From: a bacterium
GTDB taxonomy: Bacteria; UBP7; UBA6624; JBBIMK01
NCBI GenBank assembly: GCA_037444445.1
Contig: JBBIMK010000001.1
Span: 60,001 to 92,000, forward strand
Direction of reading: 5' to 3'
Length of the DNA stretch: 32,000 nucleotides
Shown here: one piece after another, positions 741-18,092 of the stretch
How positions within the stretch are numbered: position 1 is the stretch's first letter
Layout: each line of letters begins with the position of its first letter
Notes under the pieces: generated by a model
The model's database searches: none
Told to the model about the DNA's origin: nothing
Seen by the model: the letters and a program-made list of their open reading frames with translations, nothing else
Position numbers and translations under genes: made by a program

Positions 741-1826
741 CTAACAAATGCGTGGAAGTGGCTCCCCGGAGAGCATATCTACCACTCTATGTCCCCCCAC
801 GCGAGTTTCCAGAATCACCCGACCAGCAGGGTCAGCAATTACCTCTCCGATAACGGCGGAATCCTTACCATAAGGATGTTTTTTCATCGTCTCAAGGACT
901 AACTCCACTTTCTCCGATGGCACAATAGCAACCAGTTTACCTTCATTGGCTACATACAGAGGGTCTAAACCCAGAATTTCACAAGCACCTTTCACCTCCT
1001 CCTTAACGGGAATGCTGGCTTCTGTTATCTTTATGCCAACTTGCGACTTTTCAGCAATTTCATTCAGGACGGAGGCCAGTCCACCCCGAGTGGGGTCTCG
1101 TAAGCAACGCACCTCCGGGCAGGTTTCAAGAATACGCTCCACCAGAGGGTATAAAGGAGCAGTGTCGCTTTGTATCCGGGTTTCAAACTCTAAGCCTTCT
1201 CTGAGCGATAGAATTGCGACACCGTGGTCACCAATAGAACCGCTGAGAATGATTTTATCGCCCACCTTTGCACGCTCAGGGCCCACATGGACAGGTTTTT
1301 CAACAACTCCCACACCAGAAGTGGTGATAAAAATACCATCTCCCTTTCCTTTATTCACCACTTTCGTATCCCCGGTAACCAATAAAACATTTGCTTGCTG
1401 GCAAGCCTGCCTCATGGAAAGGGCAACTTGATAAAGGGATTCCATCGGAAATCCTTCTTCCAGGATGAGGGCAGCGCTGATGAAAAGGGGCTTCGCACCG
1501 CACATCGCCAGGTCATTCACAGTTCCATGAATGGAGAGAGAACCAATGTTACCCCCTGGAAAGAAAACAGGAGAAACCACATAGGAATCTGTGGTAAAAG
1601 CATAACGAACCCTGTTCATCTCAAAAACTGCTCCATCGTGCAGGGATTCAAGATAGGGATTGTGAAAACAGGGTAAAAACAGTTTTTTAATCAGGGTAGT
1701 CATAAGGCGGCCGCCGCCTCCGTGAGCCATTAAAATGGTTTCCATATCTCGGACAGGATTGGGGCAAACCAGTCCTTTCCACCGAGCAGATTCCTCGGGT
1801 TCAGGCAGTTGAGAGAAATCGTCCAT
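741..1826 (-). CDS. hypE: [NiFe] hydrogenase maturation protein HypE (carbamoyl dehydratase)
   Basis: 361 aa. Contains [27 protein letters not shown] and TGDTKV, and ends in the diagnostic PRIC. Colinear with E. coli HypE. An internal Met at nt 1745 is an alternative start. Overlaps hypD by 26 nt. Confidence 0.93.
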
Positions 1827-2898
1827 AGCGATAATAGGCTGCGCAAGCCCCTTCTGTAGAAACCATAGGAGCGCCTAAGGGATGTTCGGGTGTGCATTCC
1901 TTTCCGAAAGCGATGCACTGATTAGGCTTCTTGATGCCCTGTAAAATTAGCCCGGCAACACAGATTTCCGATTCCTTTTGAGATATAGTGTCTACTGCGA
2001 AGCGTTTTTCAGCATCAAAGTTTTCAAAGTCTTTGGTGAGTTTTAATCCACTGCGAGGAATTCGCCCGATGCCTCGCCAGGACCTATCCGTGATTTCAAA
2101 AATTTCTCTGAGGAGTTTTTGGGCGTGAAGATTCCCTTCGGACTGGACGGAGCGGGTATATTGGTTTTCCACTTCTGCTCGTCCTTCCTCCAATTGTTTC
2201 ACTGCCATATAAGCACCTTGCATCAGGTCTGCAGGCTCAAAGCCCGTTACGACAATGGGCACATGATATTTTTCAGCGATGGGCTCATACTCCTGATATC
2301 CCATCACGGTGCATACATGCCCGGCTGCCAGGAAAGCATCTACACGGGATTCTGGCGTAGAAAGAATTAACTCCAGCGCGGGAGGCACCCGCACATGACT
2401 CACCAGAATTGAAAAGTTTCCCACGCGGGTTCTATAGGCCTGCCAGACAGCCATGGCATTGGCGGGAGCCGTCGTCTCAAATCCTACAGCAAAGAACACC
2501 ACTTCCCGATGGGGATTTTGACGCGCTATCCTTAAAGCATCCAGGGGAGAATACACCACCCGAACCTCTCCCCCCTCTGCTCTCACTTGCTGGAGGCTTT
2601 TCTTTGTGCCCGGAACCCTCAGCATATCGCCGAAAGAGCAGAAAATTACTCCGGGACGGGAAGCGATTTCTATTGCCTTATCCAGAAGTTCTAACGGTGT
2701 CACACATACCGGACAACCGGGACCATGAACCAGCGTGATTTTCTCCGGTAGCATCTCATCTATCCCGAACTGTAAAAGGGTATGGGTTTGCCCACCGCAC
2801 ACTTCCATTAACACCCAATCTCGACGCACGATGGACTCCAGTGCCTTCAGATACTTTCCCACCATTCCTCTGTCACGATATTCGTCTACATATCTCAC
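1801..2898 (-). CDS. hypD: [NiFe] hydrogenase maturation Fe-S protein HypD
   Basis: 365 aa with a GTG start. The N-terminus MRYVDEYR matches that of E. coli HypD. Motifs CGGQTH and GPGCPVCV, and the C-terminal [22 protein letters not shown], are present. Confidence 0.95.
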
Positions 2899-2957
2899 CT
2901 TTATCCCTTCTCGGTCAAATCCTGAAAGAGCCCGCCTTTTATTTTCCTATCGTTTGT

Positions 2958-2986
2958 ATTATAACCTGTGAACGCCCAGAGTAAAA
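2958..2986 (-). promoter_or_regulatory. Candidate internal sigma70-like promoter ahead of hypD-hypE
   Basis: Read on the minus strand: TTTACT, 16 nt, TATAAT. It lies inside the only long gap (135 nt) of the hyp string. Seen by eye only; the -35 element is weak. Confidence 0.15.
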
Positions 2987-3033
2987 ATAGAACCTGTTCT
3001 CGGATGCCTCTTCCAGAGTTAAGACACAAAACC

Positions 3034-3309
3034 TCAGGCATTGCTGGAAGAGCTCTCCATACTTTTGAACTCTTGCTCCATTGCCCCGACCTGTTTCAAA
3101 TACTCCCACACAAACCGGGCTTCCTCTTTATCCACGATGCTGATGGCAAAGCCCACATGAACAATCACATAATCTCCCACCTTGACTTCAGGCACAAAGG
3201 AGAGGCAGACGGGTTTTAGAATCCCTCCGAAACTGACTTTTCCCATCACCAATCCCTGGGCGTCTTCCGGATAAACTTCCTTTACCTCTCCTGGAATTCC
3301 CAAACACAT
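3034..3309 (-). CDS. hypC: [NiFe] hydrogenase maturation chaperone HypC
   Basis: 91 aa starting MCLGIPGEV, the invariant HypC/HupF N-terminus with Cys2. Starts 7 nt after the hypF stop. Confidence 0.95.
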   Translation of the reverse strand: MCLGIPGEVKEVYPEDAQGLVMGKVSFGGILKPVCLSFVPEVKVGDYVIVHVGFAISIVDKEEARFVWEYLKQVGAMEQEFKSMESSSSNA

Positions 3310-3316
3310 ACCTCGT

Positions 3317-5653
3317 TCACCTCTCTGACTTTTTCATTATAACCCTGTAAGCCACGAAAATTTGTCCGGGTGAAATGCCTCCGTCGTTGGGTGGGATACG
3401 CTGATGAGTATATACTTGAAATCCCGCATTGGAAAGTTTTTGATAAGCAAGTTCCAGGAGTAAGGCGTTCTGAAAGCATCCCCCGGAAAGAACAATCTTT
3501 TCATTTCCTGCTCGTTTTGCAACCGCCACCATCATATCCACCAGGGTAAGATGAAATCTTTTAGCGATTTCCAAGATATGCCTTTCGGGATTTCTCAATT
3601 TTACAATCTCCTCCATCATCGGACCCCAATCTATCAGGATGGGGTTTTCACCCCTGAGTTCAAATGAGAAACCATCCGCGAAGTGATGAGAAGCCTGAAA
3701 TTCCACAGCCATGGCGGCCTGCGCTTCAAAACTGACCGTTTGGAAGAGTTCCAGAAGTGAGGCAAGAACATCAAAAAGCCTGCCCGCACTACTGGTAAGG
3801 GGGCAATTCACGCCCTTGTGAAGCATTTGCCGAATGACCCGAAGTTCCTGATGAGAAAAAGCACGAAGAGCAGGAGTATTCATATCAAAGGCTTTCTCAC
3901 CGAAAAGTTCATAAAGAAGCCCCAGGGCAACTCTACGGGGTTCATGAATTGCCATATCCCCACCGGGCAAGGGAAAAGTGCGTAAATGGGCAAATCTTCG
4001 GAAACCTGAAGGTGAACCAATAAGAAATTCCCCTCCCCATATAGTTCCATCCGTTCCATATCCTGTCCCGTCCCAGCAAATTCCCAGCGCTTCCCCATCC
4101 AATTCATTCTCCGCCATACAGGAAGCGATGTGAGCATGATGATGTTGAACATAAATAAGGGGCAAACCATTTTTATGGGTCCATTCTTCAGCCCACTGGG
4201 TTGAGAGGTAATCGGGATGCAGGTCGCAGGCAACTCCCACTAAACAAGGCTGAACTTCGTACAGCGCCAGGAAATCCTGAATCGTTTTTTCGAAGGTTTT
4301 CAGAGATTCCAGGGTTTCCAGGTCGCCGAGATGCTGGCTGATGAAAACATTTTTCCTCACGCTAATGGCAATTGTATTTTTCAAGTGTCCACCCACTGCA
4401 AGAATGGAAGGTAAATTTTCTTTCAGGTGAATTGGAAAAGGGGCGTATCCTCTTGCGCGTCTCAAAACCATCTCTTTGCCCAGAATTATCCGAATGATGG
4501 AATCATCAGCATGTCTCACGATAGGGCGGTTGTGGACGAGAAAAAGGTCGCATATTTTTCCAAGCCGTTTTAGAGATTCCTGTTCATCGGTACAGATGGG
4601 TTCATCCGTGAGATTCCCACTCGTGGCAATGACAGGACGCTTCACTTCACTCATAAACAGGTGGTGCATAGGGGTATAAGGGAGCATCACCCCCAGATAA
4701 GGATTGCCAGGAGCAATGTCATCAGGCAGGTCAGATTCCGGTTTTCTGGGGAGGAGGACGATGGGGTGTTCCGGAGATAACAGGGCTCGCTCTGCAAGTG
4801 GGGAAACCTGGCAATGCTTTTTAATGGTCAACAGGTCAGGAAACATCAGGGCAAAGGGCTTATCTTTGCGTGGTTTCCGGAGGCGAAGGGACCGGATTGC
4901 CTGTGGATTATAAGCATCTACCACAATCAGGAAACCTCCAAGCCCTTTGAAAGCCAGGATTTTCCCATCCAGTACAGCCTGAGCAGCCTGTTTCATCGCC
5001 TCATCATACTCCGCAAGGACTGAAGGCATTACACCCGTATTGCCTATCAGGGCATCCTCCGTCCGGCACCCGACGACCCACAATTGAAGGTGGGGACCAC
5101 AAACCGGGCAAGCAATGGGTTGCGCATGGAACCTTCGGTCGTTAGGGTCACGATATTCCCGAGCACAGTCCGGGCACATAGGGAAAATCTTCATAGAAGT
5201 ATTGGGGCGGTCATAAGGGAGGGACTCTACAATGGTAAACCTTGGCCCGCAATTCGTGCAATTGGTAAATGGGTAGCGGTATCGACGGTCAGCTGGATTC
5301 CACACTTCAGTCACACACTCATCGCAGGTAGCCACATCCGGAAGCACCAGGACAGTTTTCTCGCTTTCTTTCTCGCTCTCACGGATTTCAAAGGTGGTGT
5401 AGCCCACCGGGTCTAAAAAGGAAAATTCCAGCGACTGAATCCGTGCAAGGGGAGGTTTCTCCTTCTCTATCCGCAGAACAAAAGCATCCAGGATTTCTTT
5501 TTCTGCTTCTGCCTCAATAAACACGCCTTGCGACGAATTGAGCACCCAGCCTTTCAGCCCTAATTCAGTAGCCAGGCGGTAGACAAATGGGCGAAAACCC
5601 ACTCCTTGAACTGCCCCCCGAATCGTTGCCCTCAAACGCTGAGCCCTGTTCAT
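3317..5653 (-). CDS. hypF: Carbamoyltransferase HypF
   Basis: 778 aa. Acylphosphatase-like N-terminus (VQGVGFRPFVYRLA). Two zinc-finger pairs (CDEC...CTNCGPRFT and CPDC...CPVCGP). YrdC-like and Kae1-like C-terminal regions. Confidence 0.95.
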   Translation of the reverse strand: MNRAQRLRATIRGAVQGVGFRPFVYRLATELGLKGWVLNSSQGVFIEAEAEKEILDAFVLRIEKEKPPLARIQSLEFSFLDPVGYTTFEIRESEKESEKTVLVLPDVATCDECVTEVWNPADRRYRYPFTNCTNCGPRFTIVESLPYDRPNTSMKIFPMCPDCAREYRDPNDRRFHAQPIACPVCGPHLQLWVVGCRTEDALIGNTGVMPSVLAEYDEAMKQAAQAVLDGKILAFKGLGGFLIVVDAYNPQAIRSLRLRKPRKDKPFALMFPDLLTIKKHCQVSPLAERALLSPEHPIVLLPRKPESDLPDDIAPGNPYLGVMLPYTPMHHLFMSEVKRPVIATSGNLTDEPICTDEQESLKRLGKICDLFLVHNRPIVRHADDSIIRIILGKEMVLRRARGYAPFPIHLKENLPSILAVGGHLKNTIAISVRKNVFISQHLGDLETLESLKTFEKTIQDFLALYEVQPCLVGVACDLHPDYLSTQWAEEWTHKNGLPLIYVQHHHAHIASCMAENELDGEALGICWDGTGYGTDGTIWGGEFLIGSPSGFRRFAHLRTFPLPGGDMAIHEPRRVALGLLYELFGEKAFDMNTPALRAFSHQELRVIRQMLHKGVNCPLTSSAGRLFDVLASLLELFQTVSFEAQAAMAVEFQASHHFADGFSFELRGENPILIDWGPMMEEIVKLRNPERHILEIAKRFHLTLVDMMVAVAKRAGNEKIVLSGGCFQNALLLELAYQKLSNAGFQVYTHQRIPPNDGGISPGQIFVAYRVIMKKSER

Positions 5654-5669
5654 ATATCTTCACTATACT

Positions 5670-6017
5670 TCATTTCTCCATCTGGTAAGATTCAAGAACC
5701 AATCCCATGGGCTCAAGAGGCACAAGTTCCAGAGATTCACATTTTGGGCAGATATTCGGAAGTTCCTCCACTTCAAGCTCATAACCGCAGTTCTGACACT
5801 TCACCATACCAGGTAAAATTTCAAGGTCAAGAACCGCATTTTGAATTAAGGGATATTCCTTCTTGACCATTTCAAAGCTGAATTCCACATCATCAGAATC
5901 AAAGCCAGAAAGAGAACTCATCTTTAATTTCACCTTTGAAACGGAAAAGGCTTCCTTTTCTTTTGCTGTTTTCACCAGAACTTCCATCATTTCCCGAACG
6001 ATACTGAGTTCGTGCAT
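5670..6017 (-). CDS. hypA: Hydrogenase nickel-insertion protein HypA
   Basis: 115 aa. MHE N-terminus, which is the Ni site. Zn site CQNC-x12-CPKC. Confidence 0.9.
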   Translation of the reverse strand: MHELSIVREMMEVLVKTAKEKEAFSVSKVKLKMSSLSGFDSDDVEFSFEMVKKEYPLIQNAVLDLEILPGMVKCQNCGYELEVEELPNICPKCESLELVPLEPMGLVLESYQMEK

Positions 6018-6029
6018 TTCTGATATTCG

Positions 6030-6647
6030 CTAAATTCCTAATAGGCGTATCACAATTCCGGTGAGAGCAATAGCGCCTCCTGCTATCACATCAGAGCCAC
6101 GCTCCAGCCAGTGGACGCGCAATGAAGATATGCCCAGGTATGCGAAGTGAACCTGAACGAGCATCATCGCCACCGTAGCAAAAGCGAAAACGAGGAATAC
6201 GAAGAGCACCGCCATTCCACCTGAGGCATAAGCGGCAAAAACAAGGGGAATGAGCGGCTCGCAGGGACCGAATATTATGAGGGCAAAAAGGGTCCAGTAT
6301 GAAACAACTTTTGCCGGCTCTACCACCGGTAAATGCTTTTTCTTCAGGTTTTTCCATCCCCAAACCATATAGGCAATACCGAAGCCGATGAGGAGTAAGG
6401 AAGCCACATTCCCTCGTGCAGATTCCCATAAGTTTACTTGCTCCAAAGCGACACCCAGTAATATTCCCACACTGCTAATGAGAAGGCTGGACCCCACATG
6501 ACCTATACCTGCCAGGATTGTTATGGTCGTGAGCCTTCGCAAACTCCAGTTCTGTGCCTTTCCCAGCATCACAAATGGAAGCCAATGGTCAGGCGCAAGA
6601 GCATGTAACGCTCCCACCACCCCCGTGGAAATCATTAAAATATTCAT
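6030..6647 (-). CDS. Small polytopic membrane protein, putative Ni2+/Co2+ transporter (H-x4-DH motif)
   Basis: 205 aa, about six hydrophobic helices. The first helix carries HALAPDH, which fits the H-x4-DH signature of NiCoT-type transporters. ATGA start/stop overlap with the protease gene, and flanked by hyp genes. The CDS is solid; the function is inferred. Confidence 0.6.
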   Translation of the reverse strand: MNILMISTGVVGALHALAPDHWLPFVMLGKAQNWSLRRLTTITILAGIGHVGSSLLISSVGILLGVALEQVNLWESARGNVASLLLIGFGIAYMVWGWKNLKKKHLPVVEPAKVVSYWTLFALIIFGPCEPLIPLVFAAYASGGMAVLFVFLVFAFATVAMMLVQVHFAYLGISSLRVHWLERGSDVIAGGAIALTGIVIRLLGI

Positions 6648-7159
6648 TTCAACTCCCGACCCCTCTCTGAAATTTTCATCAAGTATTGTATCACTCTAAA
6701 AACCAGGCCGGGAATCGTTTCATTTACCTCTGGAGACAATTGGGTGCCCACAGTAAAAGGGTCTTTCACCTCTACTGCAAAAATTTTGAGCCTCCTGGGC
6801 ATAGGCAATCCCGTGGCATGTCCTAAAGCCCATACCTCTGAAATGCCCAGGTAATGCGGGGAAAGACCTTTAACCACTTTCAAATCTTCTTCTCCCAACT
6901 CATGCAACGAGCCGGGTGGAACCTTGCCTGTTTGTAGAGAATCCACGAGCACCAACTCATCATAACCGGTAATGTAATCCAGCAGTGCCAGCCCCATCTC
7001 CTCACTTTCCATAATGTCCACTAATGTTTCCTTTTGTGATGAAACAGGCTCATCTGGCATATTTTTCATCTGTTCCTGAACCTGACGAACGACCCGAAGC
7101 CCCACCGCATCATCGCTCCGCAGTTCATTCCCTAATCCGAGAAGAAGAACTTTCTTCAT
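6644..7159 (-). CDS. Hydrogenase maturation endopeptidase (HycI/HybD/FrhD family)
   Basis: 171 aa. The N-terminal VLLLGLGNELRSDDAVG motif is typical of large-subunit C-terminal processing proteases. Lies downstream of the large-subunit gene. Confidence 0.85.
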   Translation of the reverse strand: MKKVLLLGLGNELRSDDAVGLRVVRQVQEQMKNMPDEPVSSQKETLVDIMESEEMGLALLDYITGYDELVLVDSLQTGKVPPGSLHELGEEDLKVVKGLSPHYLGISEVWALGHATGLPMPRRLKIFAVEVKDPFTVGTQLSPEVNETIPGLVFRVIQYLMKISERGRELK

Positions 7160-7243
7160 ACACTCAAATAGAAATCCTTACGCTTTTCAATGGGAGGATT
7201 TTCACGGTATTCATTAACCGATTCATCAATATACTTTCCATCC

Positions 7244-8770
7244 TCATTCTTGTTTTAACTCCTGAAGGATTTTACCTGAATCGTCACGGATGGTGACGAG
7301 GAGAGGCATATGCCCCGGGAGGGAATGGGTAGCGCAGGCGTGGCAGGGGTCATAGGCGCGAAACGCCATCTCTATTTTATTCAGAAGCCCTTCCGAAACC
7401 TCGCCTTTGTGAATCAGCCCCTTCGCTGCCTTTTCCACGCTCATCGCAATCCGGGCGGAATTATTCTGAGTGGCAACAATGAGGTTCACTTTCCGAAGAA
7501 TTCCATTTTCATCAGTCTCGTAATGGTGAATCAGGGTTCCGCGAGGGGCTTCTACCACTCCGATGCCTATCTCTGGAGTCTCGGTCGGTATAACTCGCAG
7601 TTCTTTGCTGGTAATATCCGGTTCGTTAATCAGTTCGTTCATCCGCTCGGCGGCATACACCATTTCCACCACACGAGCCCAATGGGTGGCAAGGGTGTGA
7701 TGCACCGGCTTTCCACCGAGAACCGAATAAAACTCGTCGTGGGCTGTTTGGGCTTGTGGTGTGGCCATTCCATCGGAAGCATTCAATCTTGCAAGGGGAG
7801 CCACAGCATAAATCCCGCTCTCTATCCCGTCTGTGAAACCATTCCATCCTACCGGCTTGAGGTAGCAGAATTTCACATAACTCCAGGGTTCCACATGCTC
7901 CGCCACATAATCCAGGTATTTTTGAACCGGGAATCTGGCATATTCTTTCCCCTCTGGCGTTACCACCCGGATCAACCCGTCGTAGAAATTCACCCGGTTA
8001 TTTGCGTCCACCAGCCCCATGTAATAAGTTTTATGAGTATAAGTATCCGATGTGATAAGTTTCACATAATCAGGGTTTTTCAGGACGATATCGCGGAAAA
8101 CCTGAAGAGTGAAGAGGGCAAAATCCAGGCCATCCTTTGCCAATTGCTGAAAAGCAGGGAGGTCGGCGACAGCAATGCCCTTGGCTACACCACCGGGCAG
8201 TCCGAGAACAGGATGAATGACTTTCCCGCCCAGATAAGACAAAAATTCCCGAAGTCGCCGGCGCATCGTGATAACTTTTTTCCCGACCTCTACTCCCACC
8301 TTTTGTATCACTCCCACCACATTGCGGATTTCAGCAGGAGCGTCAGGTCCAACGATAAAATCAGGACCTCCGAGGATATACACATGTAGCGCATGGTCTT
8401 CCAGCATAAATGTGTTATACATTAATTCTCGGATTTTCTTTGCGGCAGGAGGAGGGTCCACTTTATACAGGTCATCCAGAGCCTTTGTAGAGGCTATATG
8501 ATGGGCAGTTGGGCAAACGCCGCAAATCCGGCTGGTAATCTGCGGCATATCTTCCGCTGGCCTTCCCAGACAAAACACCTCAAATCCGCGAAGTTCCGGA
8601 ACCTGAAAATATGCACGTTCTACCTCGCCTTTGTCGTCCAGGAAGATGTCTATCTTTCCGTGACCTTCCAACCGGGTGATGGGGTCTACGGTGACTCTCC
8701 TCTTTTCCATATAAGCCTCATTTGCTCTCCTTTGTGCTTCACTCCAAACTTTTTGAATCTCTTCTTTCAT
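7244..8770 (-). CDS. mvhA: [NiFe] hydrogenase large subunit, MvhA/VhuA-like (probable group 3c)
   Basis: 508 aa. Ni-Fe ligand motifs RICGVCPTAH (N-terminal) and DPCHACATH (C-terminal). The second is followed by a 26-aa tail (SLPGHMPLLV...), as expected for a protease-processed precursor. AGGAGG lies 9 nt upstream of the ATG. The group call rests on linkage to mvhD and hdrA. Confidence 0.9.
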   Translation of the reverse strand: MKEEIQKVWSEAQRRANEAYMEKRRVTVDPITRLEGHGKIDIFLDDKGEVERAYFQVPELRGFEVFCLGRPAEDMPQITSRICGVCPTAHHIASTKALDDLYKVDPPPAAKKIRELMYNTFMLEDHALHVYILGGPDFIVGPDAPAEIRNVVGVIQKVGVEVGKKVITMRRRLREFLSYLGGKVIHPVLGLPGGVAKGIAVADLPAFQQLAKDGLDFALFTLQVFRDIVLKNPDYVKLITSDTYTHKTYYMGLVDANNRVNFYDGLIRVVTPEGKEYARFPVQKYLDYVAEHVEPWSYVKFCYLKPVGWNGFTDGIESGIYAVAPLARLNASDGMATPQAQTAHDEFYSVLGGKPVHHTLATHWARVVEMVYAAERMNELINEPDITSKELRVIPTETPEIGIGVVEAPRGTLIHHYETDENGILRKVNLIVATQNNSARIAMSVEKAAKGLIHKGEVSEGLLNKIEMAFRAYDPCHACATHSLPGHMPLLVTIRDDSGKILQELKQE

Positions 8771-8787
8771 AATCCATGACCTCCTTT

Positions 8788-9762
8788 TTATTCTTTGGTT
8801 ACGACCTTCCTTCGGAGTAGGGACCTGGCTAACCCATACCGATAAAAAGTGCCCACCGGGTCAGGGATGTTAGAAAGAATCCTGTCAATCTCTGCCTCGT
8901 CCTTAGCATTCACAGAAGACGCCAGTGATGATAGAATCTTTGCCCCCTGGTCTTTGACGCGGGAAGTGGGGCCGAAGCATCCAGTGCAGGGCATATTGCC
9001 CTTGATGCACAGGGCTTCACAACCTCCACGAGTGGCTGGTCCCATACACACAACGCCCTGCGCGAGAAGACACTTTTCCGGGTCGAATTGGGTCCAATGA
9101 GGGCGTTTAAACTCAGTAAAACATAGGTCTGTGGGTTTTGTATCCTTTCGCGGGCATTCGTCACAGAGGGCGATGTCTGGAGCCAGCACTGTTCCTCTGG
9201 GTGGAAGGTTCCCGGAAAGAAGGGTCAGGAGCGCTTCCTTCAGGATTTTGGGAGTTGGCGCACATCCAGGAAGGTAGTAATCCACATCTACCACCTGGTC
9301 CAGGGAGCGGGTAACATTCCGGAACTCCGGTAAAGTAGCAGTTCTTCCATCATCTTGAAATCTCGTCACAGGGCGGGTTCTATCCGAATTCTGAACTGAG
9401 GGGGCTTCTTCATAAACATACTGGAGGATGCGCTCCCGGCTAAACTGGTTCGCGAGCGACGGAATACCTCCGAGGTAGGCGCAGGCGCCGTAGGCAATCA
9501 GGATTTTACTCTTTCGCCGGAGGAGGCGAGCCATTGCTTCCTGCTCGGAAGTTCGGATAGAGCCGTTAATCATCGTTACCAGGATAGCCCCATCTGGCAG
9601 GGCCTCTACATCCTTCTTTTTGAAATCCAGCGCCACGGGCCAGAAGATGATGTCTACTGCCTCCAGCACCATCAAAATGTCTTCTGCCAGGTCCACAATA
9701 GATTCTTCACAGCCCCCGCAGGAAGCGCACCAGTAAAAGGCGACTTTGGGTTTGTCAGACAT
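8788..9762 (-). CDS. mvhG: [NiFe] hydrogenase small subunit, MvhG-like, cytoplasmic
   Basis: 324 aa. N-terminal FYWCASCGGCEES. Further Cys clusters: CDECPRK, CMGPATRGGCEALC, CTGCFGP. No twin-arginine signal peptide. Overlaps mvhD by 8 nt. Confidence 0.85.
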   Translation of the reverse strand: MSDKPKVAFYWCASCGGCEESIVDLAEDILMVLEAVDIIFWPVALDFKKKDVEALPDGAILVTMINGSIRTSEQEAMARLLRRKSKILIAYGACAYLGGIPSLANQFSRERILQYVYEEAPSVQNSDRTRPVTRFQDDGRTATLPEFRNVTRSLDQVVDVDYYLPGCAPTPKILKEALLTLLSGNLPPRGTVLAPDIALCDECPRKDTKPTDLCFTEFKRPHWTQFDPEKCLLAQGVVCMGPATRGGCEALCIKGNMPCTGCFGPTSRVKDQGAKILSSLASSVNAKDEAEIDRILSNIPDPVGTFYRYGLARSLLRRKVVTKE

Positions 9763-10273
9763 TTGCCTCCACCTCCTCTGTCCTAATCTCCTCTTCCAGG
9801 GCTTCTATTTCTCGGTCCCACTCTTTAAAACGAGCAGGCAGGCCCAGAGGTCCCAGCGCCTTGACCTTTTCCACCATATCGTTGATGACGGATTTGACCT
9901 TTTCCCCTTCCGAGGCGGAGACCCATTCCAACCGCAGGCGAGCATCCTCAATGCCCATATCCTGGAGCATACGCCTCAGGAGGCGAAATCGGCGCAGGGC
10001 TTTGTAATTGCCCTCAATGTAGTGGCAATCGCCCGGGTGGCATCCACCGATGAGGACGCCATCGGCACCCTTAGCGAACGCATCCAGAACGAACTGGGGG
10101 TCAATTCTGCCGGAGCACATCACACGGATGATGCGCACATTCGGGGCATATTTCATCCGGGAAACCCCCGCCAGGTCCGCCGCCGTATAGGTGCACCAGT
10201 TGCAGAAGAATGCCACAATCCGGGGTTCCCACTCCCTGGAAGTTGCCACAATGTCGTTTGATTCTTTATTCAT
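9755..10273 (-). CDS. mvhD: MvhD-like hydrogenase delta subunit ([2Fe-2S] electron-transfer adaptor to HdrA)
   Basis: 172 aa. Motifs IVAFFCNWCTY, RVMCSGR and GGCHPGDCHY are characteristic of MvhD-domain proteins. AAAGGAGG RBS upstream. Confidence 0.85.
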   Translation of the reverse strand: MNKESNDIVATSREWEPRIVAFFCNWCTYTAADLAGVSRMKYAPNVRIIRVMCSGRIDPQFVLDAFAKGADGVLIGGCHPGDCHYIEGNYKALRRFRLLRRMLQDMGIEDARLRLEWVSASEGEKVKSVINDMVEKVKALGPLGLPARFKEWDREIEALEEEIRTEEVEANV

Positions 10274-10358
10274 GCTTCAACCTCCTTTGTTAGGGGCGTT
10301 TCCCGCTTCCCTGCCTGTTCGTCTCTCCTTCTGTATTCTGCTTTCAGGATTCTGTTTG

Positions 10359-12365
10359 CTACGCATACGCGAGCACTCCTTCTATTTCGCTATAAATTTC
10401 TTCGTCTTCAAAGAGATTTTGTTTGATGGAGCCCGATGGGCAGGCGGCGACACAAACGCCGCACCCTTTGCACAACGCTTCATTGATATAGGCTTTCTTC
10501 TTGTCTTCCAGATACGAGATGGCGGTGTATGGGCAGAGCGGGATGCAGGATTTGCACCCGGAGCAGTCTTCTTCCACGATGTAAGCGGTGTTCGGCTCCA
10601 GTTCCACATAGCCCGTGTCAATGAGAGCGAGAGCCTCTGCTGCGGCGGCGCCCGCCTGCGCCACGGTATCCGGAATGTCCTTGGGTCCCTGGCAGCACCC
10701 AGCGAGAAAGATGCCGTCCGTGAATGTGTTCACGGGCGCAAGTTTCGGATGACGCTCCAGAAAGAATCCTTCCGTAGAGCAGGTGATGTTAAACAGACGA
10801 CGAACTTCCTGGGCATCGGAACGCGGCTCCAATCCAACGGATAGAACCACCATATCCACCGGGATGCGCAGAATTTTCCCAATCAGCGTGTCCTCCGCCT
10901 GGACGATGAGGCGACCATTATTGGGAACCGACGGGTCCGGATATATGTCCGCCACCTTTCCACGAATCAGATGGACCCCTTCCTCGGCGACACGGTTGTA
11001 AAATTCCTCCATACTTTTCCCTGGTGCCCGGATGTCAATGTAGAAGTTGTAAATTTCCGCATCGGTGTGCTCCTTAATCAAGTGAGCCAGCTTCAAGGAG
11101 TACATACAACACACCCGTGAGCACCAGCGATTGGTGTTTTCATCCCGGGAGCCAACGCAGTGCACGATGGCTACCTTCTCCGGCTTCCGTCCGTCCCGCA
11201 GAACCACTTCTCCGCCGGTAGGACCCGCAGAGTTGATGAGGCGTTCCACCTCCAGCGCCGTGAACACATTCGGATAGATGCTGTATCCGTAGTATGGGAT
11301 GCGTCGCGCGTCGAAGGTCTGGAAACCTGTAGCAATGATGATGGTTCCCACTTCAATTTCCCGGATTTCCTCTTTCTGTTCGAAGTCAATGGCATTGCGG
11401 TCATCGCAGACCTCCACGCAGGTCTGTTTGCATTTACCAGACTTGAACTGGATACAGGTCTCCGGGTCAATGACGACGACCTTCGGAACGGCCTGGGGGA
11501 ACGGCATATACACCGGCTTGCGCTTGCCAAGCCCAAGATTAAACTCGTCCGGAAACCGTGCGTCTTTGTAGACACAGGCTTCAATACACTCCAGACAGCC
11601 GACGCACAGGTCTTCGCGGATATAGCGCGGTTTCCGTTTCACGGTTACCTTGAAGTTGCCGACAAATCCGTCCACTGCCATTACTTCCGAGTATGTCCAG
11701 AGCGTGATATTCGGGTGCGCTTTCACCTGGGTCATCTTGGGGGTGAGGATGCAGGCGGCGCAATCCAGAGTCGGGAAGGTCTTGTCAAACATTGCCATGT
11801 GACCGCCGATGGAAGGCTCCCGCTCCACCAGATAAACATGCTTTCCTGCATTGGCGAGTGTGAGGGCAGAGTGAATTCCCGCAATCCCTCCGCCGACAAT
11901 CAGAACATCCGGATTTACAGGAACGCGTTTTCTCTCTAAGGGCTTGTGAAAGAAAACGCGCTGAATTGCAGCCCGGCTCAGGTCCTTCGCTTTTTGGGTC
12001 GCCGCTACCCTGTCCTCGTGCACCCAGGAGTCGTGCTCCCGAATGTTGACCATCTGCATATAGAAAGGATTCAATCCTCCTTTCTCCGCAGCGCTTCGGA
12101 AGGTTTGTTCGTGAAGAAGAGGAGAGCAGGAAGCCACGATGATGCGATTCAGGTTGTGCTCCTGGATGTCCTGTTGAATAAGGGCTTGTCCGGGGTCCGA
12201 GCACATATACCTGTAATCTCTGGACACCACCACCCCGGGCAGGGTAGCGATGTATTGAGCCACCTCTTTTACATCCACCATCCCCGCGATATTCGTCCCG
12301 CAGTGGCAGATGTAGAATCCAATCCGTATCTCGCCGTTCGTTCTCATTGCTTTCACTTCAATCAC
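10359..12365 (-). CDS. hdrA: Heterodisulfide reductase subunit A-like flavoprotein (HdrA)
   Basis: 668 aa. Cys-containing N-terminal domain (FYICHCGTNI). FAD fold VLIVGGGIAGI. Inserted ferredoxin domain (CVGCLECIEAC ... CKQTCVEVC). C-terminal 2x[4Fe-4S] ferredoxin domain (CSGCKSCIPLCP, CKGCGVCVAACP). Confidence 0.9.
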   Translation of the reverse strand: MIEVKAMRTNGEIRIGFYICHCGTNIAGMVDVKEVAQYIATLPGVVVSRDYRYMCSDPGQALIQQDIQEHNLNRIIVASCSPLLHEQTFRSAAEKGGLNPFYMQMVNIREHDSWVHEDRVAATQKAKDLSRAAIQRVFFHKPLERKRVPVNPDVLIVGGGIAGIHSALTLANAGKHVYLVEREPSIGGHMAMFDKTFPTLDCAACILTPKMTQVKAHPNITLWTYSEVMAVDGFVGNFKVTVKRKPRYIREDLCVGCLECIEACVYKDARFPDEFNLGLGKRKPVYMPFPQAVPKVVVIDPETCIQFKSGKCKQTCVEVCDDRNAIDFEQKEEIREIEVGTIIIATGFQTFDARRIPYYGYSIYPNVFTALEVERLINSAGPTGGEVVLRDGRKPEKVAIVHCVGSRDENTNRWCSRVCCMYSLKLAHLIKEHTDAEIYNFYIDIRAPGKSMEEFYNRVAEEGVHLIRGKVADIYPDPSVPNNGRLIVQAEDTLIGKILRIPVDMVVLSVGLEPRSDAQEVRRLFNITCSTEGFFLERHPKLAPVNTFTDGIFLAGCCQGPKDIPDTVAQAGAAAAEALALIDTGYVELEPNTAYIVEEDCSGCKSCIPLCPYTAISYLEDKKKAYINEALCKGCGVCVAACPSGSIKQNLFEDEEIYSEIEGVLAYA

Positions 12366-13566
12366 CTCCCAGCGATTCTGCGAGAAGTTCTACCACATCT
12401 CTGACGACCATCCTGTCGTCGTAACCTGCCAGTTTGAGGGCGTCTTCAAATCGCGAGACTTCGTAGGGGCAGGAGACCGCGAGGACATCCGCCCCCGTCT
12501 GAATCGCTTCCTTCACACGGCGGTCTGAAAGCCGCTCCATCCCTCTGGACTTATAGTAAGTATCCAGCCACATTCCGCCGCCACCCCCACCACAGCAGAG
12601 AGAACTAATGCGATTATGAGTCATTTCTACCAGTTTCACTCCCGGTATGGCCTGAAGAAGGGCTCTGGGCTCTTCGTAAAAGCCGTTGTGTCGCCCAAGA
12701 CAACACGAATCGTGATAGGTAACTTTGTAATTCAGTTTTTTCGTTAACAAAGGCTTCAATGCCTCCAGATGTTTAGCGAAAAAAGTGGTGATGTGCTCCA
12801 GCGGATAATCAAATCCATAGCAGGGGTAGATATATTTGAAAGCATCGTAAGCATGCGCCCCGCTCGTAACAATCTGATGGAACCGGTATTTCCGGAAGAC
12901 GCCCATATTGCGTTCCCGAAGCGTGTCAAAGAGGCCAGTTTCCCCGACAAGGCGGGCACATTCTCCTGCGCAGCGTTCTTCATTTCCCAAAATGGCGAAG
13001 TCCACACCAAGAGCGTGAAAAAGTTTTGCTACAGCCCTGCTATTATCCTGCCCTCTTGGATGGTAAGATGTATAGCATTCCACGAACCAGAGCACATCCA
13101 CAGGCTCAGGATTTTGAGAAAGGATACGGATAGGAACTCCAGCGGTTTTTATCCATTCAGCCCTTTTCGCCGGAGACAAACCCTGCGGGTTTCCATATCG
13201 GAGGGTATTCTGGAGGGCGGTCTGCAATTCCCTCGGCACTTCTGGCAAGTGTTCAAAGACGCGCTCTTTCACCAGGGGAAGGAGAACTTCCGTGAGACGA
13301 ATGCCACGGGGGCATTTTGCCATGCAAGAGTAACAAGCCACACAGTTCAGGAGACTATCAGAGTGAAAGACTTCCTCAATCAAACCGGCTCGGAGCATCG
13401 CAATAATTTTCCGCGGTGGATACTCCATATATTCCCCATACGGGCAGGTTCCTGCACACATACCGCACTGGATGCAGGTCAGCACATTCCTTCCCTCCGG
13501 AATTCCAGTGAGAGTTTCCAGAGTGATGTCGCACACGGAGCGAATCGCTTCGTGAGTCATTACCAT
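12358..13566 (-). CDS. Soluble HdrD-like Fe-S protein (HdrC-type 2x[4Fe-4S] fused to HdrB-type CCG domains)
   Basis: 402 aa with no hydrophobic segment. Contains CIQCGMCAGTCP and CVACYSCMAKCP. CCG-type regions follow: ERCAGEC, YHDSCCLGRHNG, SLCCGGGGGG, AVSCPYE. The stop overlaps the hdrA start by 8 nt. Confidence 0.8.
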   Translation of the reverse strand: MVMTHEAIRSVCDITLETLTGIPEGRNVLTCIQCGMCAGTCPYGEYMEYPPRKIIAMLRAGLIEEVFHSDSLLNCVACYSCMAKCPRGIRLTEVLLPLVKERVFEHLPEVPRELQTALQNTLRYGNPQGLSPAKRAEWIKTAGVPIRILSQNPEPVDVLWFVECYTSYHPRGQDNSRAVAKLFHALGVDFAILGNEERCAGECARLVGETGLFDTLRERNMGVFRKYRFHQIVTSGAHAYDAFKYIYPCYGFDYPLEHITTFFAKHLEALKPLLTKKLNYKVTYHDSCCLGRHNGFYEEPRALLQAIPGVKLVEMTHNRISSLCCGGGGGGMWLDTYYKSRGMERLSDRRVKEAIQTGADVLAVSCPYEVSRFEDALKLAGYDDRMVVRDVVELLAESLGGD

Positions 13567-13571
13567 TCTTT

Positions 13572-15566: not shown

Positions 15567-16550
15567 TTATCCCGCTCCCTTCCTCTTCCTGGCTTCCTCT
15601 ATCAGGGCGGGAATTACCTCAAAAATGTCCATTGCCGCTCCGTAATGGGCGATGTCAAAAATCGGCGCTTTCGGGTCGGTGTTCACTGCAATAATCAATT
15701 GTGAATTCCTCATCCCTTCTTGATGCTCCGGGGCACCACTGATGCCCAAAGCCAGATAGAGTTTCGGTTTAACCGTCATCCCGGACTTGCCCACCTGCCG
15801 GGTGAGCGGGAGCCAGCCCTGGTCCACCACCGGGCGGGAGGCACACACCGCTCCCCTGAGAATCCCCGCCAGTTCCTCGGCAAGTGAGATGTTCTCCTGA
15901 TTTTGTATCCCACGCCCTACAGCCACAAGAATACCCTGCCTGGTGATGTCCACATCTCCTGCTTCAGGCTCAATAAACTTTCTGAATATTACTTCCGGCT
16001 CTCCGAGAGGAATTTCAAGTCTTTCTACCGAAGCGCTTCCTTCTACTTTTCCAGCATTTGCAGGAAATGAACCAGGCAGGATGCTGATAATCCCCCGGTT
16101 GTTGGGTAAACGAGTATCCGTTAGAATCTTCCCACCGAAAAGCTGGCTGGTAAAAAGGATGGAGGTGTCTGCGAAGGTAATGTTTTTGCAGAAATTTATG
16201 AAGGGGAAAGCAGTAAAGGCTGAGAGTTTAGGACCTATACCCATAGAGAGATTAGTTCCGCCAATGGTTACCAGCGATATTTGTTTTTCCTTCACCACAT
16301 TTTTCAAAATGGATGCCACCACATTCGGGGAAGGCATATCCAGCGCCGGATTTTCCACCAGGAAAATCCGGTCTGCTATTCCGAGGTGGGAAGTAAGATG
16401 AGATACATTCCTGCCCAGCACCACTGGGTAAAGAGGAACCTTCAAAAAATCCGCCATCTTTCTACCGATACCTAACATTTCGTAAGTAATTTCCGTAATT
16501 TCTCCTTTCAGGTGCTCTGTGAGGACGAGAATTCCGCCTTGCATTTTCAT
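15567..16550 (-). CDS. etfA: Electron transfer flavoprotein alpha (large) subunit
   Basis: 327 aa. C-terminal FAD domain motifs PKLYLALGISGAPEHQEGM and IIAVNTDPKAPIFDIAHYG. GGGAGG RBS. Starts 7 nt after etfB. Confidence 0.9.
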   Translation of the reverse strand: MKMQGGILVLTEHLKGEITEITYEMLGIGRKMADFLKVPLYPVVLGRNVSHLTSHLGIADRIFLVENPALDMPSPNVVASILKNVVKEKQISLVTIGGTNLSMGIGPKLSAFTAFPFINFCKNITFADTSILFTSQLFGGKILTDTRLPNNRGIISILPGSFPANAGKVEGSASVERLEIPLGEPEVIFRKFIEPEAGDVDITRQGILVAVGRGIQNQENISLAEELAGILRGAVCASRPVVDQGWLPLTRQVGKSGMTVKPKLYLALGISGAPEHQEGMRNSQLIIAVNTDPKAPIFDIAHYGAAMDIFEVIPALIEEARKRKGAG

Positions 16551-16557
16551 CGCCTCC

Positions 16558-17334
16558 CTAAATCAGTCCTCGTTCTGCCAATATCTCAACTATGCGTTTC
16601 GCAATTTCCTCTGGAGTTCCTGCGAGCATTTCCGCCCTGCCGGCGATTTCTGGCTTATACATTTTCTCCACACTGAGCGATGCAGGAATCTCCGGAAGAG
16701 AAGACTCTACCGTATCAATTTTGACAGATTTCATTATGGAGCGCACTTTCGCCACCGGCACATACCGTGGAGGTTTTTCTGCAGATTGAATTCCGAGAAC
16801 CGCAGGGAGAGACAACTCAAATTCGCCTCGTAAACCTCCCGCAAATTCTTTCATAATGATGACTTTTCCTTCCTCCAGGCGAACACCGCTTACCACGCCC
16901 ACATAAGGAGTTCCCAGGTGATGAGCCAGATAAGGTGCCATTTCTCCCTCTAAATCATCAATTGCCTGGGAGCCGGTAAGCACCAGGGTTTCAGAAAGGT
17001 TTTGCCCGAGCCAGTCCTTGATATAAGTGGAAAAGATTTGAGCGGTAGCCGTTGACCGAAGGCCGGTCCATTCGCCCGAGATTTTCACCGCCCGGTCAGC
17101 GCCCCTTGCCAGAGCGGTGTAAAGAATTTCATCCACCTCTGGAGCCTCCAGGGTAATGGCGGTTACGGTTCCACCACATCTCTCCTTTAACAGAATCGCC
17201 TCTTCCAGGGCGTGTTCGTCCGGCTCACTGACAATCATTCTCAGCCACTGAGTATCCAGCGACCTTCCATCTTCTGCCACCATCAACTCTTCCACGGTAT
17301 CGGGGACCATTTTCAAGATAACAACCCAGTTCAT
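16558..17334 (-). CDS. etfB: Electron transfer flavoprotein beta (small) subunit
   Basis: 258 aa. Typical EtfB layout: ILKMVPD..., SEPDEHALEEAILLKE, RGADRAV, GSQAIDD.... GGAGGGTGG RBS immediately upstream. Confidence 0.9.
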   Translation of the reverse strand: MNWVVILKMVPDTVEELMVAEDGRSLDTQWLRMIVSEPDEHALEEAILLKERCGGTVTAITLEAPEVDEILYTALARGADRAVKISGEWTGLRSTATAQIFSTYIKDWLGQNLSETLVLTGSQAIDDLEGEMAPYLAHHLGTPYVGVVSGVRLEEGKVIIMKEFAGGLRGEFELSLPAVLGIQSAEKPPRYVPVAKVRSIMKSVKIDTVESSLPEIPASLSVEKMYKPEIAGRAEMLAGTPEEIAKRIVEILAERGLI

Positions 17335-17417: not shown

Positions 17418-18092
17418 CTATTCAGTATGATTTTTATCATATTTTTGAATGATTTTTCTCAAACGAATTGGGCTTAGAACAGTCATTTCCCCCCGGTGAA
17501 TTGTGAGGATGCCCCTGGAACGGAGGACTGATAAAGTGCGAATGGAGGTTTCCACGGTTGTCCCCGCCATACTGGCAAGTTCTTTATGGGTTACAGGTAT
17601 TTTTTTCCCGAATTTTTTACTGAGTGATAAAAGTATCTGAAGCAGACGCTGGGATGCGGAGTTATGGTATAGGGAAATGGAGGATTCCATGTGCCTCAAG
17701 CGTTTAATGACAAAAGAAAATAGAGCAGTTGCTATGGATGGATATGATTTCATCCACTTCCGAATCTCTTCCGCCGGTACCCGGTATAAAGAGCAAGGAC
17801 TTCCTGCAACGGCTGTGGCAGCATAAGGGCTACCATCCAGGGAAGAAACGCCAAATAAGCCTTCTTCCGGAGTTAGTAGGTCCAGGATAACCTCATGTCC
17901 GTCAATAGACTTACGCTTGAGGACTACACGACCTTGCCGGAGAATCCACAAATACTCGCTCCGATCCCCTTCGTGAAAGATAATTTCGCCAGGAGAATAG
18001 CGTAAGACTTCAAAAGAGTGCCGCAGGGATTCTACCAGGTTTCGTGGTAATTCATGAAAAAACGGGATTCTGTATATGCGCCTTTCCCTCAT
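17418..18092 (-). CDS. Crp/Fnr-family transcriptional regulator (no FNR-type Cys cluster)
   Basis: cNMP-binding-like beta-roll (FHEGDRSEYLWILRQGRVVLKR) and a C-terminal HTH (ELASMAGTTVETSIRTLSVLRSRG). The track ORF starts at nt 18143. I prefer the Met at 18092 (MRERRIYRIPFFHELP, 224 aa), because the upstream 17 codons are AT-rich and overlap a palindromic operator-like site. The start remains uncertain. Confidence 0.8.
   Translation of the reverse strand: MRERRIYRIPFFHELPRNLVESLRHSFEVLRYSPGEIIFHEGDRSEYLWILRQGRVVLKRKSIDGHEVILDLLTPEEGLFGVSSLDGSPYAATAVAGSPCSLYRVPAEEIRKWMKSYPSIATALFSFVIKRLRHMESSISLYHNSASQRLLQILLSLSKKFGKKIPVTHKELASMAGTTVETSIRTLSVLRSRGILTIHRGEMTVLSPIRLRKIIQKYDKNHTE

Follow-up and report, generated by a model that had tools for sequence, protein, structure and literature searches.

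We analysed a window of 32,000 nucleotides (nt) from a bacterium of the lineage UBP7 (contig JBBIMK010000001.1, positions 60,001 to 92,000), in which a block of 15 successive minus-strand genes (741-17334) joins an electron-transfer flavoprotein (ETF; genes etfB and etfA), a membrane-bound and a soluble Fe-S protein, the flavoprotein HdrA, an Mvh-type [NiFe] hydrogenase and hydrogenase maturation genes. We propose, and put the chances of this reading at about even, that the block specifies an H2-dependent system of flavin-based electron bifurcation of the HdrA type, in which ETF and menaquinone (MK), and not a heterodisulfide, would be the high-potential outlet. All parts of the proposed path were present and intact in the window. 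The proposal builds on the identities of the parts, on their sets of cofactor ligands, on the paralogy of the two Fe-S proteins and on the conservation of the gene neighbourhood across phyla.

Membrane and soluble EMO-type proteins

The membrane protein matched Mycobacterium smegmatis EtfD as resolved by cryogenic electron microscopy (Protein Data Bank (PDB) entry 9OJN, E 3.3e-68), and both its membrane and its soluble parts were aligned. EtfD (MsEtfD) and the Syntrophus aciditrophicus EMO (SaEMO) are ETF:(methyl)menaquinone oxidoreductases, whose cofactors and ligands have been described (PMC13083937; bioRxiv 10.64898/2026.08.18.745454). From the alignment, the protein has a membrane domain of the NarI-like haem-b kind, along with sites for two cubane [4Fe-4S] clusters and for one non-cubane cluster, and the gene follows etfB-etfA, as in EMO/EtfD.

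In an alignment of 63 sequences, comprising the window protein and its orthologues from related loci, the three haem-ligand histidines of EMO were conserved. H225 and H243 were kept in 63/63 and H80 in 61/63, with gaps in the other two. H80, H225 and H243 align with H78, H223 and H241 of MsEtfD, and with H87, H233 and H251 of SaEMO. The eight cubane cysteines were invariant, as were the first five members of the proximal non-cubane set (C550, C585, C586, C626, H500 and D629). D629 replaces the fifth and last cysteine of this set, and was Asp in 58 and Glu in 5 of the sequences. Unlike EMO/EtfD, the window protein lacked all ligands of the distal cluster, the corresponding positions (D426, N461, D498 and T501) being non-Cys in 63/63. 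An equal loss was described in the EtfD paper for the ETF-linked homologues FadF and DgcB. The window protein further differs from EMO/EtfD in having no long disordered C-terminal tail, and proteins of its type were always accompanied by the soluble paralogue and hdrA. Because the haem and proximal ligands are kept and the distal ligands lost, we assign the protein, from its sequence, to a subfamily of EMO/EtfD with a single non-cubane cluster. By homology it is a predicted ETF:menaquinone oxidoreductase, which agrees with the initial annotation, where the etfBA-membrane protein unit had been taken as a module passing acyl-CoA-derived electrons to menaquinone.

Over its entire length, the soluble Fe-S protein shared 36% identity (E 7e-79) with the cytoplasmic portion of the membrane protein. 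Its N-terminal domain resembled HdrC (5ODC_C, 1.9e-15) and the remainder EtfD (9OJN, 3.4e-42), and none of the HdrB chains reached E 1e-3 by sequence. For its AlphaFold2 model (pLDDT 72, pTM 0.75) the best fold match was EtfD (9OJN, E 1.2e-17, TM 0.73), with LutA next, and HdrB chains gave TM scores of only about 0.41-0.45.

We aligned the soluble protein with 81 orthologues (82 sequences). The eight cubane cysteines were kept wherever the residue was present (80-82/82). C288, C324, C325, C366 and H238 were invariant, and E369 was Glu in 81/82 and Asp in one. The distal set (C164, C199 and C203) varied, being present in 58-69/82. BamD, FadF and DgcB have a like pattern, in which the proximal ligands are kept and the distal ones are not. 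An HdrB pattern, with two complete CCG motifs and ten cysteines including two bridging ones, was not found in the window. In the soluble protein the bridging cysteines of HdrB were missing from both CCG motifs, the first having three variable cysteines, and the second C, CC and C plus Glu. The same signature ran through both HdrD-like proteins of the block: a bridging cysteine missing per CCG motif, Glu or Asp in place of the final cysteine, and no CxxC in the first motif.

Given its paralogy to the membrane protein, its fold match to EtfD and the loss of the bridging cysteines, we consider the soluble protein, by sequence and model, to be a paralogue of EMO that lacks the membrane anchor and has an HdrC-like entry domain. 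A role as the catalytic equivalent of HdrBC was rejected on the ligand pattern and on the match to the EtfD rather than the HdrB fold. The initial annotation had called the protein HdrCB-like, a name that suits its HdrC-like N-terminus but not its active site. It also fits the description of BamD-type proteins, to which we liken it by description only: an HdrCB fusion with a conserved proximal Cys and His set, a degenerate distal site and a linked hdrA. We propose that it acts as an adaptor, which would pass the high-potential electron from HdrA to ETF.

Hydrogenase, HdrA and ETF

MvhA carried the motifs RICGVCPTAHH and DPCHACATH, of the nickel-ligand types RxCGxCxxxH and DPCxxCxxH. Its best NCBIfam family was VhuA, with 393 bits (under the equivalog cut-off of 800 bits) against 169 bits for the next family. 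In the PDB it scored 403 bits with 7T2R_D (HydL of the bifurcating A. mobile NiFe-HydABCSL), 352 bits with the methanogen 5ODC_F and 315 bits with the NAD-reducing 5XF9_D. The N-terminus of MvhG (MSDKPKVAFYWCASCGGCEE) had no twin-arginine (Tat) signal. With VhuA as the best curated family, mvhD and hdrA adjoining and no Tat signal, the cytoplasmic Mvh-type hydrogenase proposed in the initial annotation was upheld. The gene hdrA lies 85 nt upstream of mvhD, whose product matched FlpD, and the small subunit is cytoplasmic. This mvhD/hdrA context, together with the usage of the term in a Chloroflexi preprint (bioRxiv 10.1101/2021.08.23.457424), supports an assignment of the hydrogenase to group 3c.

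HdrA was aligned over residues 8-665 with the methanogen HdrA structures 5ODC_A and 8RVU_a (E ~1e-217). All its cluster motifs were in register, namely the N-terminal cluster, the LDCxxC pair, the inserted ferredoxin domain, the CC motif and the C-terminal ferredoxin domain. In the inserted ferredoxin domain the second motif had an altered spacing. HdrA is the presumed bifurcating centre.

EtfA and EtfB formed a deep-branching pair, at a similar distance in the PDB from non-bifurcating and bifurcating structures; EtfB scored 88 bits with the non-bifurcating 1O94 and 80 bits with the bifurcating 5OL2. The EtfB loop was GSQAIDDLEGEMAP in the window, with the consensus G.QA.DDLDG among relatives, and is unlike both the GRQAIDGDTAQVG type of 5OL2_B and the loop of the non-bifurcating human and M. 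methylotrophus proteins. EtfA had no N-terminal ferredoxin domain, its alignment starting at residue ~66-71 of CarE and LctC.

Conservation of the gene neighbourhood

With an alignment of the 402-aa soluble Fe-S protein as bait, we searched 185,579 species, each represented by a single genome. At least 401 stretches matched, of which 80 loci were kept with 10-kb flanks. Three more were added by exact-protein look-ups, giving 83 related loci in all (L001 to L083). As these loci were picked solely by homology to the soluble protein, the genes surrounding it constitute an independent test. Genes were counted on tblastn maps made with the window proteins, and the denominators below are the loci with enough sequence to judge. 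A synteny map based on open reading frames (ORFs), in which the ORFs were over-extended in GC-rich loci and produced spurious overlaps, was not used for counts.

The etfB/etfA genes adjoined the soluble Fe-S gene in 75/76 loci. Full-length hdrA was found on the same strand in 61/67, mvhD plus mvhG in 40/48 and mvhA in 33/45 loci. Related loci with the cluster came from at least 11 phyla and followed two orders. The order of the window, etfB-etfA-membrane-soluble-hdrA-mvhDGA, was found in 27 loci from Verrucomicrobiota, Bacteroidota, Ignavibacteriota and Eisenbacteria. The order soluble-etfB-etfA-membrane-hdrA-mvhDGA was found in 52 loci from Acidobacteriota, Gemmatimonadota, Chloroflexota, Planctomycetota, CSP1-3/Armatimonadota and Actinomycetota. 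In either order, the Fe-S gene preceding hdrA frequently overlapped it by 4 or 8 nt on the ORF-based map (8 nt in the window).

The co-occurrence of the parts is near-obligate. A chance juxtaposition was ruled out, because all parts are retained through the permutation and across many phyla. The adjacency of ETF, Fe-S, hdrA and mvh genes is thus not confined to this contig, which was the survey that the initial annotation had called for. The functional link that it had suggested between the two modules is supported by this adjacency, which recurs in many phyla, in two gene orders and with overlapping Fe-S/hdrA junctions.

The median identity to the window proteins was 74% for HdrA, 75% for MvhD, 67% for MvhA and 65% for the soluble Fe-S protein, and 51%, 47% and 46% for EtfB, EtfA and the membrane protein, respectively. 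In the database, ~4000 proteins were related to the soluble protein at E<=1e-30. Among the best 120, identities were 73-100%, and at least six phyla were represented by those with a named source.

No acyl-CoA dehydrogenase, ferredoxin or substrate dehydrogenase was conserved in the flanks of the 83 related loci. The sole other family recurring there was a Cache_3-type two-component system. In 35/83 loci, its sensor histidine kinase, a hybrid kinase and response regulators were encoded within the cluster or next to it on the same strand (e.g., L057 15048-18578, L082 16296-20233 and L003 1064-3022). The window had no Cache_3-type kinase, and a Crp-family regulator stood in its place.

A variant arrangement was seen in L002-L007 (Ignavibacteriota/Bacteroidota/Thermodesulfovibrionales; e.g., L002 5695-9781 and L003 15371-18717). 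There, the soluble gene was followed by a gene for a truncated HdrA-like protein of 286 aa, and then by a sensory-type [FeFe]-hydrogenase-like gene, HATPase and PHP genes, NuoE/NuoF-like genes and hdrA-mvhD. The module of ETF, EMO-type and soluble proteins therefore also adjoins a different type of hydrogenase.

Comparison with known systems

The families of all the parts are known, and for the proposed wiring there is a precedent from 2026 in another enzyme, the class II benzoyl-CoA reductase Bam[(BC)2DEFGHI]2 of Geobacter metallireducens. In this complex the HdrA-type BamE is fed by the MvhD-type BamF and directs the high-potential electron to BamD, a soluble fusion of the HdrCB kind. BamD carries two cubanes and a proximal non-cubane cluster with Cys5-His ligation, its heterodisulfide pocket is blocked, and most homologues have a disrupted distal cluster. 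In situ, BamD is the docking site of ETF, which becomes reduced in vitro, and the membrane EMO reoxidises ETF, with reduction of menaquinone (bioRxiv 10.64898/2026.04.10.717634).

The counterparts in the window would be MvhD for BamF, HdrA for BamE, the soluble Fe-S protein for BamD, EtfAB for ETF and the membrane protein for EMO. Both systems have an HdrA-type flavoprotein fed through an MvhD-type adaptor, and a soluble HdrCB-fusion outlet with two cubanes, a preserved proximal non-cubane site and a degenerate distal one. In both, an ETF would be reoxidised by a membrane EMO. The docking of ETF on BamD would have a parallel in the window. They differ in their input, a [NiFe] hydrogenase (MvhAG) in the window and the NADH/ferredoxin-confurcating BamGHI in Bam, and in their HdrA, which is a canonical single unit in the window and a fused double one in BamE. 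Unlike Bam, the window encodes ETF and EMO within the same operon. It also has no tungsten-containing BamBC, so that the low-potential acceptor is presumably free ferredoxin.

With the MvhAGD-HdrABC complex of methanogens (5ODC) the block shares the mvhD-G-A order, the cytoplasmic [NiFe] hydrogenase, a full-length HdrA with all cluster motifs and an HdrC-like ferredoxin domain next in line. In contrast to that complex, there was no HdrB with two CCG motifs in the window, and the soluble partner is EtfD-like and free of bridging cysteines. The window adds ETF and a haem-b membrane protein. It has no MvhB: the polyferredoxin was missing among the block products, as the initial annotation had stated. 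To our knowledge, these bacteria have no coenzyme M/coenzyme B metabolism (CoM-S-S-CoB).

In FixABCX/EtfABCX the bifurcating flavin resides in EtfB, the donor is NADH, and electrons go to ferredoxin and quinone. The window system would likewise involve an ETF and divide the electrons of a mid-potential donor between ferredoxin and the quinone pool. It differs in that the presumed bifurcating flavin is in HdrA, the donor would be H2, and FixC and FixX are absent from the window.

A gene association of this kind was noted in 2021 in a preprint on a Chloroflexi supergroup, where a group 3c [NiFe] hydrogenase is preceded by HdrA2B2C2, 'HdrD', ETF alpha/beta and 'ETF-QO'. Its authors stated that the association of group 3c, EtfAB and 'HdrA2B2C2D' has the potential to bifurcate electrons (bioRxiv 10.1101/2021.08.23.457424). 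That preprint presents genomic context for one superphylum, and in its text we found no analysis of the HdrD-like proteins and no mechanism. The novelty suggested in the initial annotation therefore stands in part: we found no characterised complex of this composition in full-text searches of a literature that lacks most subscription journals, but the association had been noted before, and the wiring has its precedent in benzoyl-CoA reductase.

Proposed electron path and alternative readings

In the proposed path, MvhA/MvhG would oxidise H2 in the cytoplasm and MvhD would pass the electrons to the FAD of HdrA. The low-potential electron would exit through the ferredoxin domains of HdrA to ferredoxin. 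The high-potential electron would enter the soluble EMO/BamD-like protein by way of its two cubanes and its conserved non-cubane cluster, and EtfAB would dock on this protein and accept the electron on the FAD of EtfAB. EtfAB would then hand it to the membrane EMO/EtfD-type protein, and menaquinone would be reduced through haem b. The net reaction would be 2 H2 + oxidised ferredoxin + MK -> reduced ferredoxin + MKH2. For the physical contacts, the choice of ferredoxin as low-potential partner and the flow direction, we reasoned by analogy with benzoyl-CoA reductase and with the EMO:ETF structure. In the Syntrophus EMO:ETF complex, EtfB contacts the domain of the non-cubane cluster, and the FAD of EtfA swings to 12-13 Å from the clusters.

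A role of ETF as an internal carrier fits the neighbourhood, since neither an acyl-CoA dehydrogenase nor another substrate dehydrogenase is conserved in the flanks. The midpoint potentials are -414 mV for H2, -74 mV for MK and about -450 to -500 mV for ferredoxin, and on these standard potentials the H2-oxidising direction would be strongly favourable. The sole expression datum that we found is consistent with H2 uptake: mvhA of this type was transcribed in H2/CO2 chemoautotrophic hot-spring enrichments of the phylum CSP1-3, some members of which (L027 and L052) carry the cluster.

Several observations weigh against this path. The first concerns canonical hdrC-hdrB genes, with both CCG motifs complete, which were present on the same strand in at least 32/83 related loci (L001, L003, L006, L014, L015, L020, L026, L029, L030, L032-L034, L037, L038, L041, L045-L048, L055, L058, L060, L063, L068 and L081-L083, among others). 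Depending on the lineage, they were located before etfB, before the soluble gene, directly before hdrA or after mvhA. In the closest relatives of the window (89% identity), mvhA was followed ~4 kb downstream by hdrCB, with a sensor kinase and response regulators encoded in between. Within the 32-kb window there was no hdrCB, and mvhA is followed instead by the protease, the 205-aa protein and the hyp genes. The composition given in the initial annotation thus holds for the window but is not the whole story, as relatives often add hdrC-hdrB. In view of these genes, HdrA may serve a disulfide-reducing HdrBC also or instead.

Some Acidobacteriota (L014, L020 and L026) had two hdrA genes, one beside the ETF genes and one beside hdrCB-mvhD. 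Their order was soluble-etfB-etfA-membrane-hdrA-hdrC-hdrB, after which the second hdrA and mvhD were visible in L020 and L026. Two copies were also present in L001 and L040, with hdrC-hdrB-hdrA upstream of the cluster. In all five loci both copies were 71-75% identical to the window HdrA. This hints at a heterodimeric HdrA or at two separate complexes, and the latter would count against the single path proposed here.

About a quarter of the loci with room for them had no mvhA or no mvh genes nearby. In L016, L017, L052, L059 and L062, mvhD-mvhG was present and no mvhA was found within 2.7-5 kb, and the same applied to L008 and L038. The gap after mvhG was not due to masked sequence, and in L062 a histidine kinase gene came next. 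In L019 and L028 the cluster ended after hdrA, followed by unrelated genes. Furthermore, the cluster contained no ferredoxin gene, and the PDB scores and the EtfB loop placed the ETF in neither the one-FAD nor the two-FAD type. We found no biochemical or structural study of this composition in the full-text literature, a search outside which most subscription journals lie. Our reading leaves unexplained the role of the canonical HdrCB, the double hdrA of Acidobacteriota and the mvhD-mvhG loci without an adjacent mvhA.

The same architecture might run toward H2 evolution, as the initial annotation had already put forward, with reduced ETF or menaquinol and reduced ferredoxin confurcated at HdrA. 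ETF would then receive its electrons from acyl-CoA or other flavin dehydrogenases, the system would be a soluble disposal route for high-potential electrons during fermentation or hypoxia, and the membrane EMO an alternative respiratory outlet of the same ETF pool. Each electron-transfer step is reversible in principle, beta-oxidation is the usual role of EMO/EtfD with ETF, and the carriers are mostly from organoheterotrophic phyla. The Crp/Fnr-family regulator directly upstream suggests conditional expression. Energetically, ETF/MK (about 0 to -74 mV) and ferredoxin give a mean of ~-230 to -290 mV, and calculated from standard potentials H2 evolution would be feasible only at or below ~1 Pa H2. 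With no acyl-CoA dehydrogenase conserved near the 83 related loci, a solved precedent that flows from an HdrA-type flavin to ETF, and the lone expression datum coming from H2/CO2 enrichments, we consider H2 evolution unlikely.

The hdrC-hdrB genes with complete CCG motifs, at least 32 of the 83 loci having them on the same strand and often directly before hdrA or etfB, could also belong to a thiol/disulfide cycle. HdrA, a canonical HdrBC (encoded nearby in relatives and, on this reading, elsewhere in this genome) and MvhADG would reduce a low-molecular-weight or protein disulfide, and the HdrD-like pair with ETF would reoxidise the thiols to the quinone pool, like a reversed HdrDE, which the membrane protein resembles in its overall architecture. 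The ligand patterns make such a cycle quite improbable: both HdrD-like proteins lack the bridging cysteines and the first-motif CxxC and have Glu or Asp for the final cysteine, and the membrane protein has lost the entire distal cluster. In the solved EMO, EtfD and BamD, the clusters are shielded electron-transfer sites and not catalytic ones. The cycle would also leave the need for ETF unexplained, and hdrCB is absent from the 32-kb window.

The least probable reading is that of two independent modules, co-located and co-regulated without direct electron transfer, namely an ordinary ETF/EMO link from beta-oxidation to menaquinone and an ordinary Hdr/Mvh hydrogenase. In its favour, etfBA-hdrF and hdrA-mvh occupy separate loci in Desulfobacterium autotrophicum, EMO occurs in Syntrophus and mycobacteria, and some related loci have no mvh beside hdrA. 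Against it, hdrA comes after the ETF/Fe-S genes in 61/67 loci from many phyla, under two permuted orders and with junctions that overlap. A plain ETF/EMO system would offer no obvious role to the soluble EMO paralogue, which is conserved best among the partners of ETF here, and the EMO subfamily without a distal cluster was seen, among the sampled loci, only in this context.

Gene inventory and regulation of the block

The six-frame ORF list confirmed the coordinates of all 15 genes of the initial annotation and their common strand (Table 1). In gene order, the gaps calculated from the ORF coordinates were 7, 0, 5, -8, 85, -8, 17, 84, -4, 12, 16, 7, 135 and -26 nt, in agreement with 14/14 of the junction lengths given before. 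The junction between etfA and the membrane Fe-S gene reads TAAATG, at 0 nt. All family assignments of the initial annotation were recovered with Pfam and NCBIfam, except for the 205-aa membrane protein, which had no family match.

Table 1 Genes of the block and the adjacent regulator gene, with coordinates in the window.
Gene or product	Coordinates	Strand	Matches and features
Crp/Fnr-family regulator	17418..18143	-	Pfam cNMP_binding and HTH_Crp_2; 83-nt gap upstream of etfB, same strand
etfB, electron-transfer flavoprotein small subunit	16558..17334	-	Pfam ETF 2.8e-20
etfA, electron-transfer flavoprotein large subunit, electron-transferring FAD domain	15567..16550	-	Pfam ETF and ETF_alpha
Membrane Fe-S protein, putative EMO/EtfD type, 664 aa	13572..15566	-	Membrane region, 2x[4Fe-4S] domain, one CCG domain; 9OJN E 3.3e-68
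Soluble Fe-S protein, putative EMO/BamD-like, 402 aa	12358..13566	-	2x[4Fe-4S] domain and two CCG matches
hdrA, full-length flavoprotein, FAD and six [4Fe-4S] motifs	10359..12365	-	NCBIfam HdrA2 857 bits
mvhD, [2Fe-2S] adaptor between hydrogenase and HdrA	9755..10273	-	Pfam FlpD 2.2e-57; NCBIfam VhuD 1.6e-40 and C-terminal part of HdrA2
mvhG, [NiFe]-hydrogenase small subunit	8788..9762	-	NCBIfam VhuG 2.8e-62
mvhA, [NiFe]-hydrogenase large subunit, group 3, Mvh/Vhu-like	7244..8770	-	NCBIfam VhuA 1.5e-117
Hydrogenase maturation endopeptidase	6644..7159	-	Pfam HycI; TIGR00072 3.7e-27
205-aa polytopic membrane protein	6030..6647	-	HALAPDH (H-x4-DH) motif; no family match
hypA	5670-6017	-	Pfam HypA; NCBIfam hypA
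hypF	3317-5653	-	Pfam HypF domains
hypC	3034-3309	-	Pfam HupF_HypC; NCBIfam hypC
hypD	1801-2898	-	Pfam HypD
hypE	741-1826	-	Pfam AIRS/AIRS_C

Among the maturation genes, hypB (the nickel GTPase gene) was absent from the block and from the entire 32-kb window. The maturation protease gene came after mvhA in many related loci, as judged from the tblastn maps. The 205-aa protein had no match in Pfam or NCBIfam, lax thresholds included, and no homologue was detected in the 83 related loci. Its HALAPDH motif is one that we take to resemble nickel/cobalt transporter signatures, and by this motif and its context alone the protein is a candidate nickel transporter.

The Crp/Fnr-family protein probably regulates the block. 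As read from its sequence, it had no N-terminal FNR-type cysteine cluster, and it gave weak NCBIfam matches to NtcA, FtrB and CRP. An ORF family with a cNMP-binding domain recurred in the flanks of 6 related loci, e.g., upstream of the cluster in L009. At window positions 18130-18143 there was a perfect palindrome, ATGATATATATCAT, with the core TGAT-N4-ATCA, resembling half-sites of the Crp/Fnr type. The palindrome starts where the start codon of the Crp-family gene is annotated, within a divergent, AT-rich region that faces argS, and the true start of this gene may be further downstream than annotated. No terminator-like sites were found in the intergenic gaps of the block, and their total in the window was below that of shuffled sequence, so that the consensus scan for promoters and terminators was uninformative.

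The G + C content was 0.52-0.55 over window positions 9001-13000, which hold the 5' part of mvhG, mvhD, hdrA and the soluble Fe-S gene, and 0.44-0.50 in most of the window. The products of this sub-module were also those with the highest cross-phylum identity (65-75% median). High G + C content and identity of this sub-module are compatible with strong constraint or with lateral transfer. The region from 18272 to 31600 was housekeeping-like, and encoded ArgRS, an ABC-2 exporter with a CAAX-protease domain, MutS2/Smr, a TPR protein, an SDH-type ClpP-like protease, an MFS transporter and ABC ATPases.

Biological significance

Group 3c hydrogenases occur commonly in the genomes of bacteria and, as CoM-S-S-CoB is lacking there, we know of no assigned partner reaction for them outside methanogens. 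The cluster names candidate high-potential acceptors for them, namely ETF and then menaquinone, and it is widespread in phyla that dominate in the environment. Tentatively, and at slightly less than even confidence, we view the cluster as encoding a widespread and hitherto uncharacterised class of electron-bifurcating hydrogenase in bacteria, an H2:ferredoxin/ETF-menaquinone oxidoreductase, in which ETF would be the built-in carrier linking a soluble Mvh-HdrA-(BamD-like) complex with a membrane EMO dedicated to it. If the proposed path is true, group 3c hydrogenases would have a defined function, the use of H2 to make low-potential ferredoxin at the cost of reducing quinone, in Acidobacteriota, Verrucomicrobiota, Planctomycetota, Chloroflexota, Gemmatimonadota and others. 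Non-cubane cluster proteins would then serve as ETF docking sites in a third enzyme context, after EMO/EtfD and benzoyl-CoA reductase. Respiring or facultative bacteria would have a new means of gaining reduced ferredoxin from H2 without spending membrane potential. Many of the at least 401 matching stretches were from soil, peat, groundwater and hot springs, and such a system could thus have a wide ecological reach.

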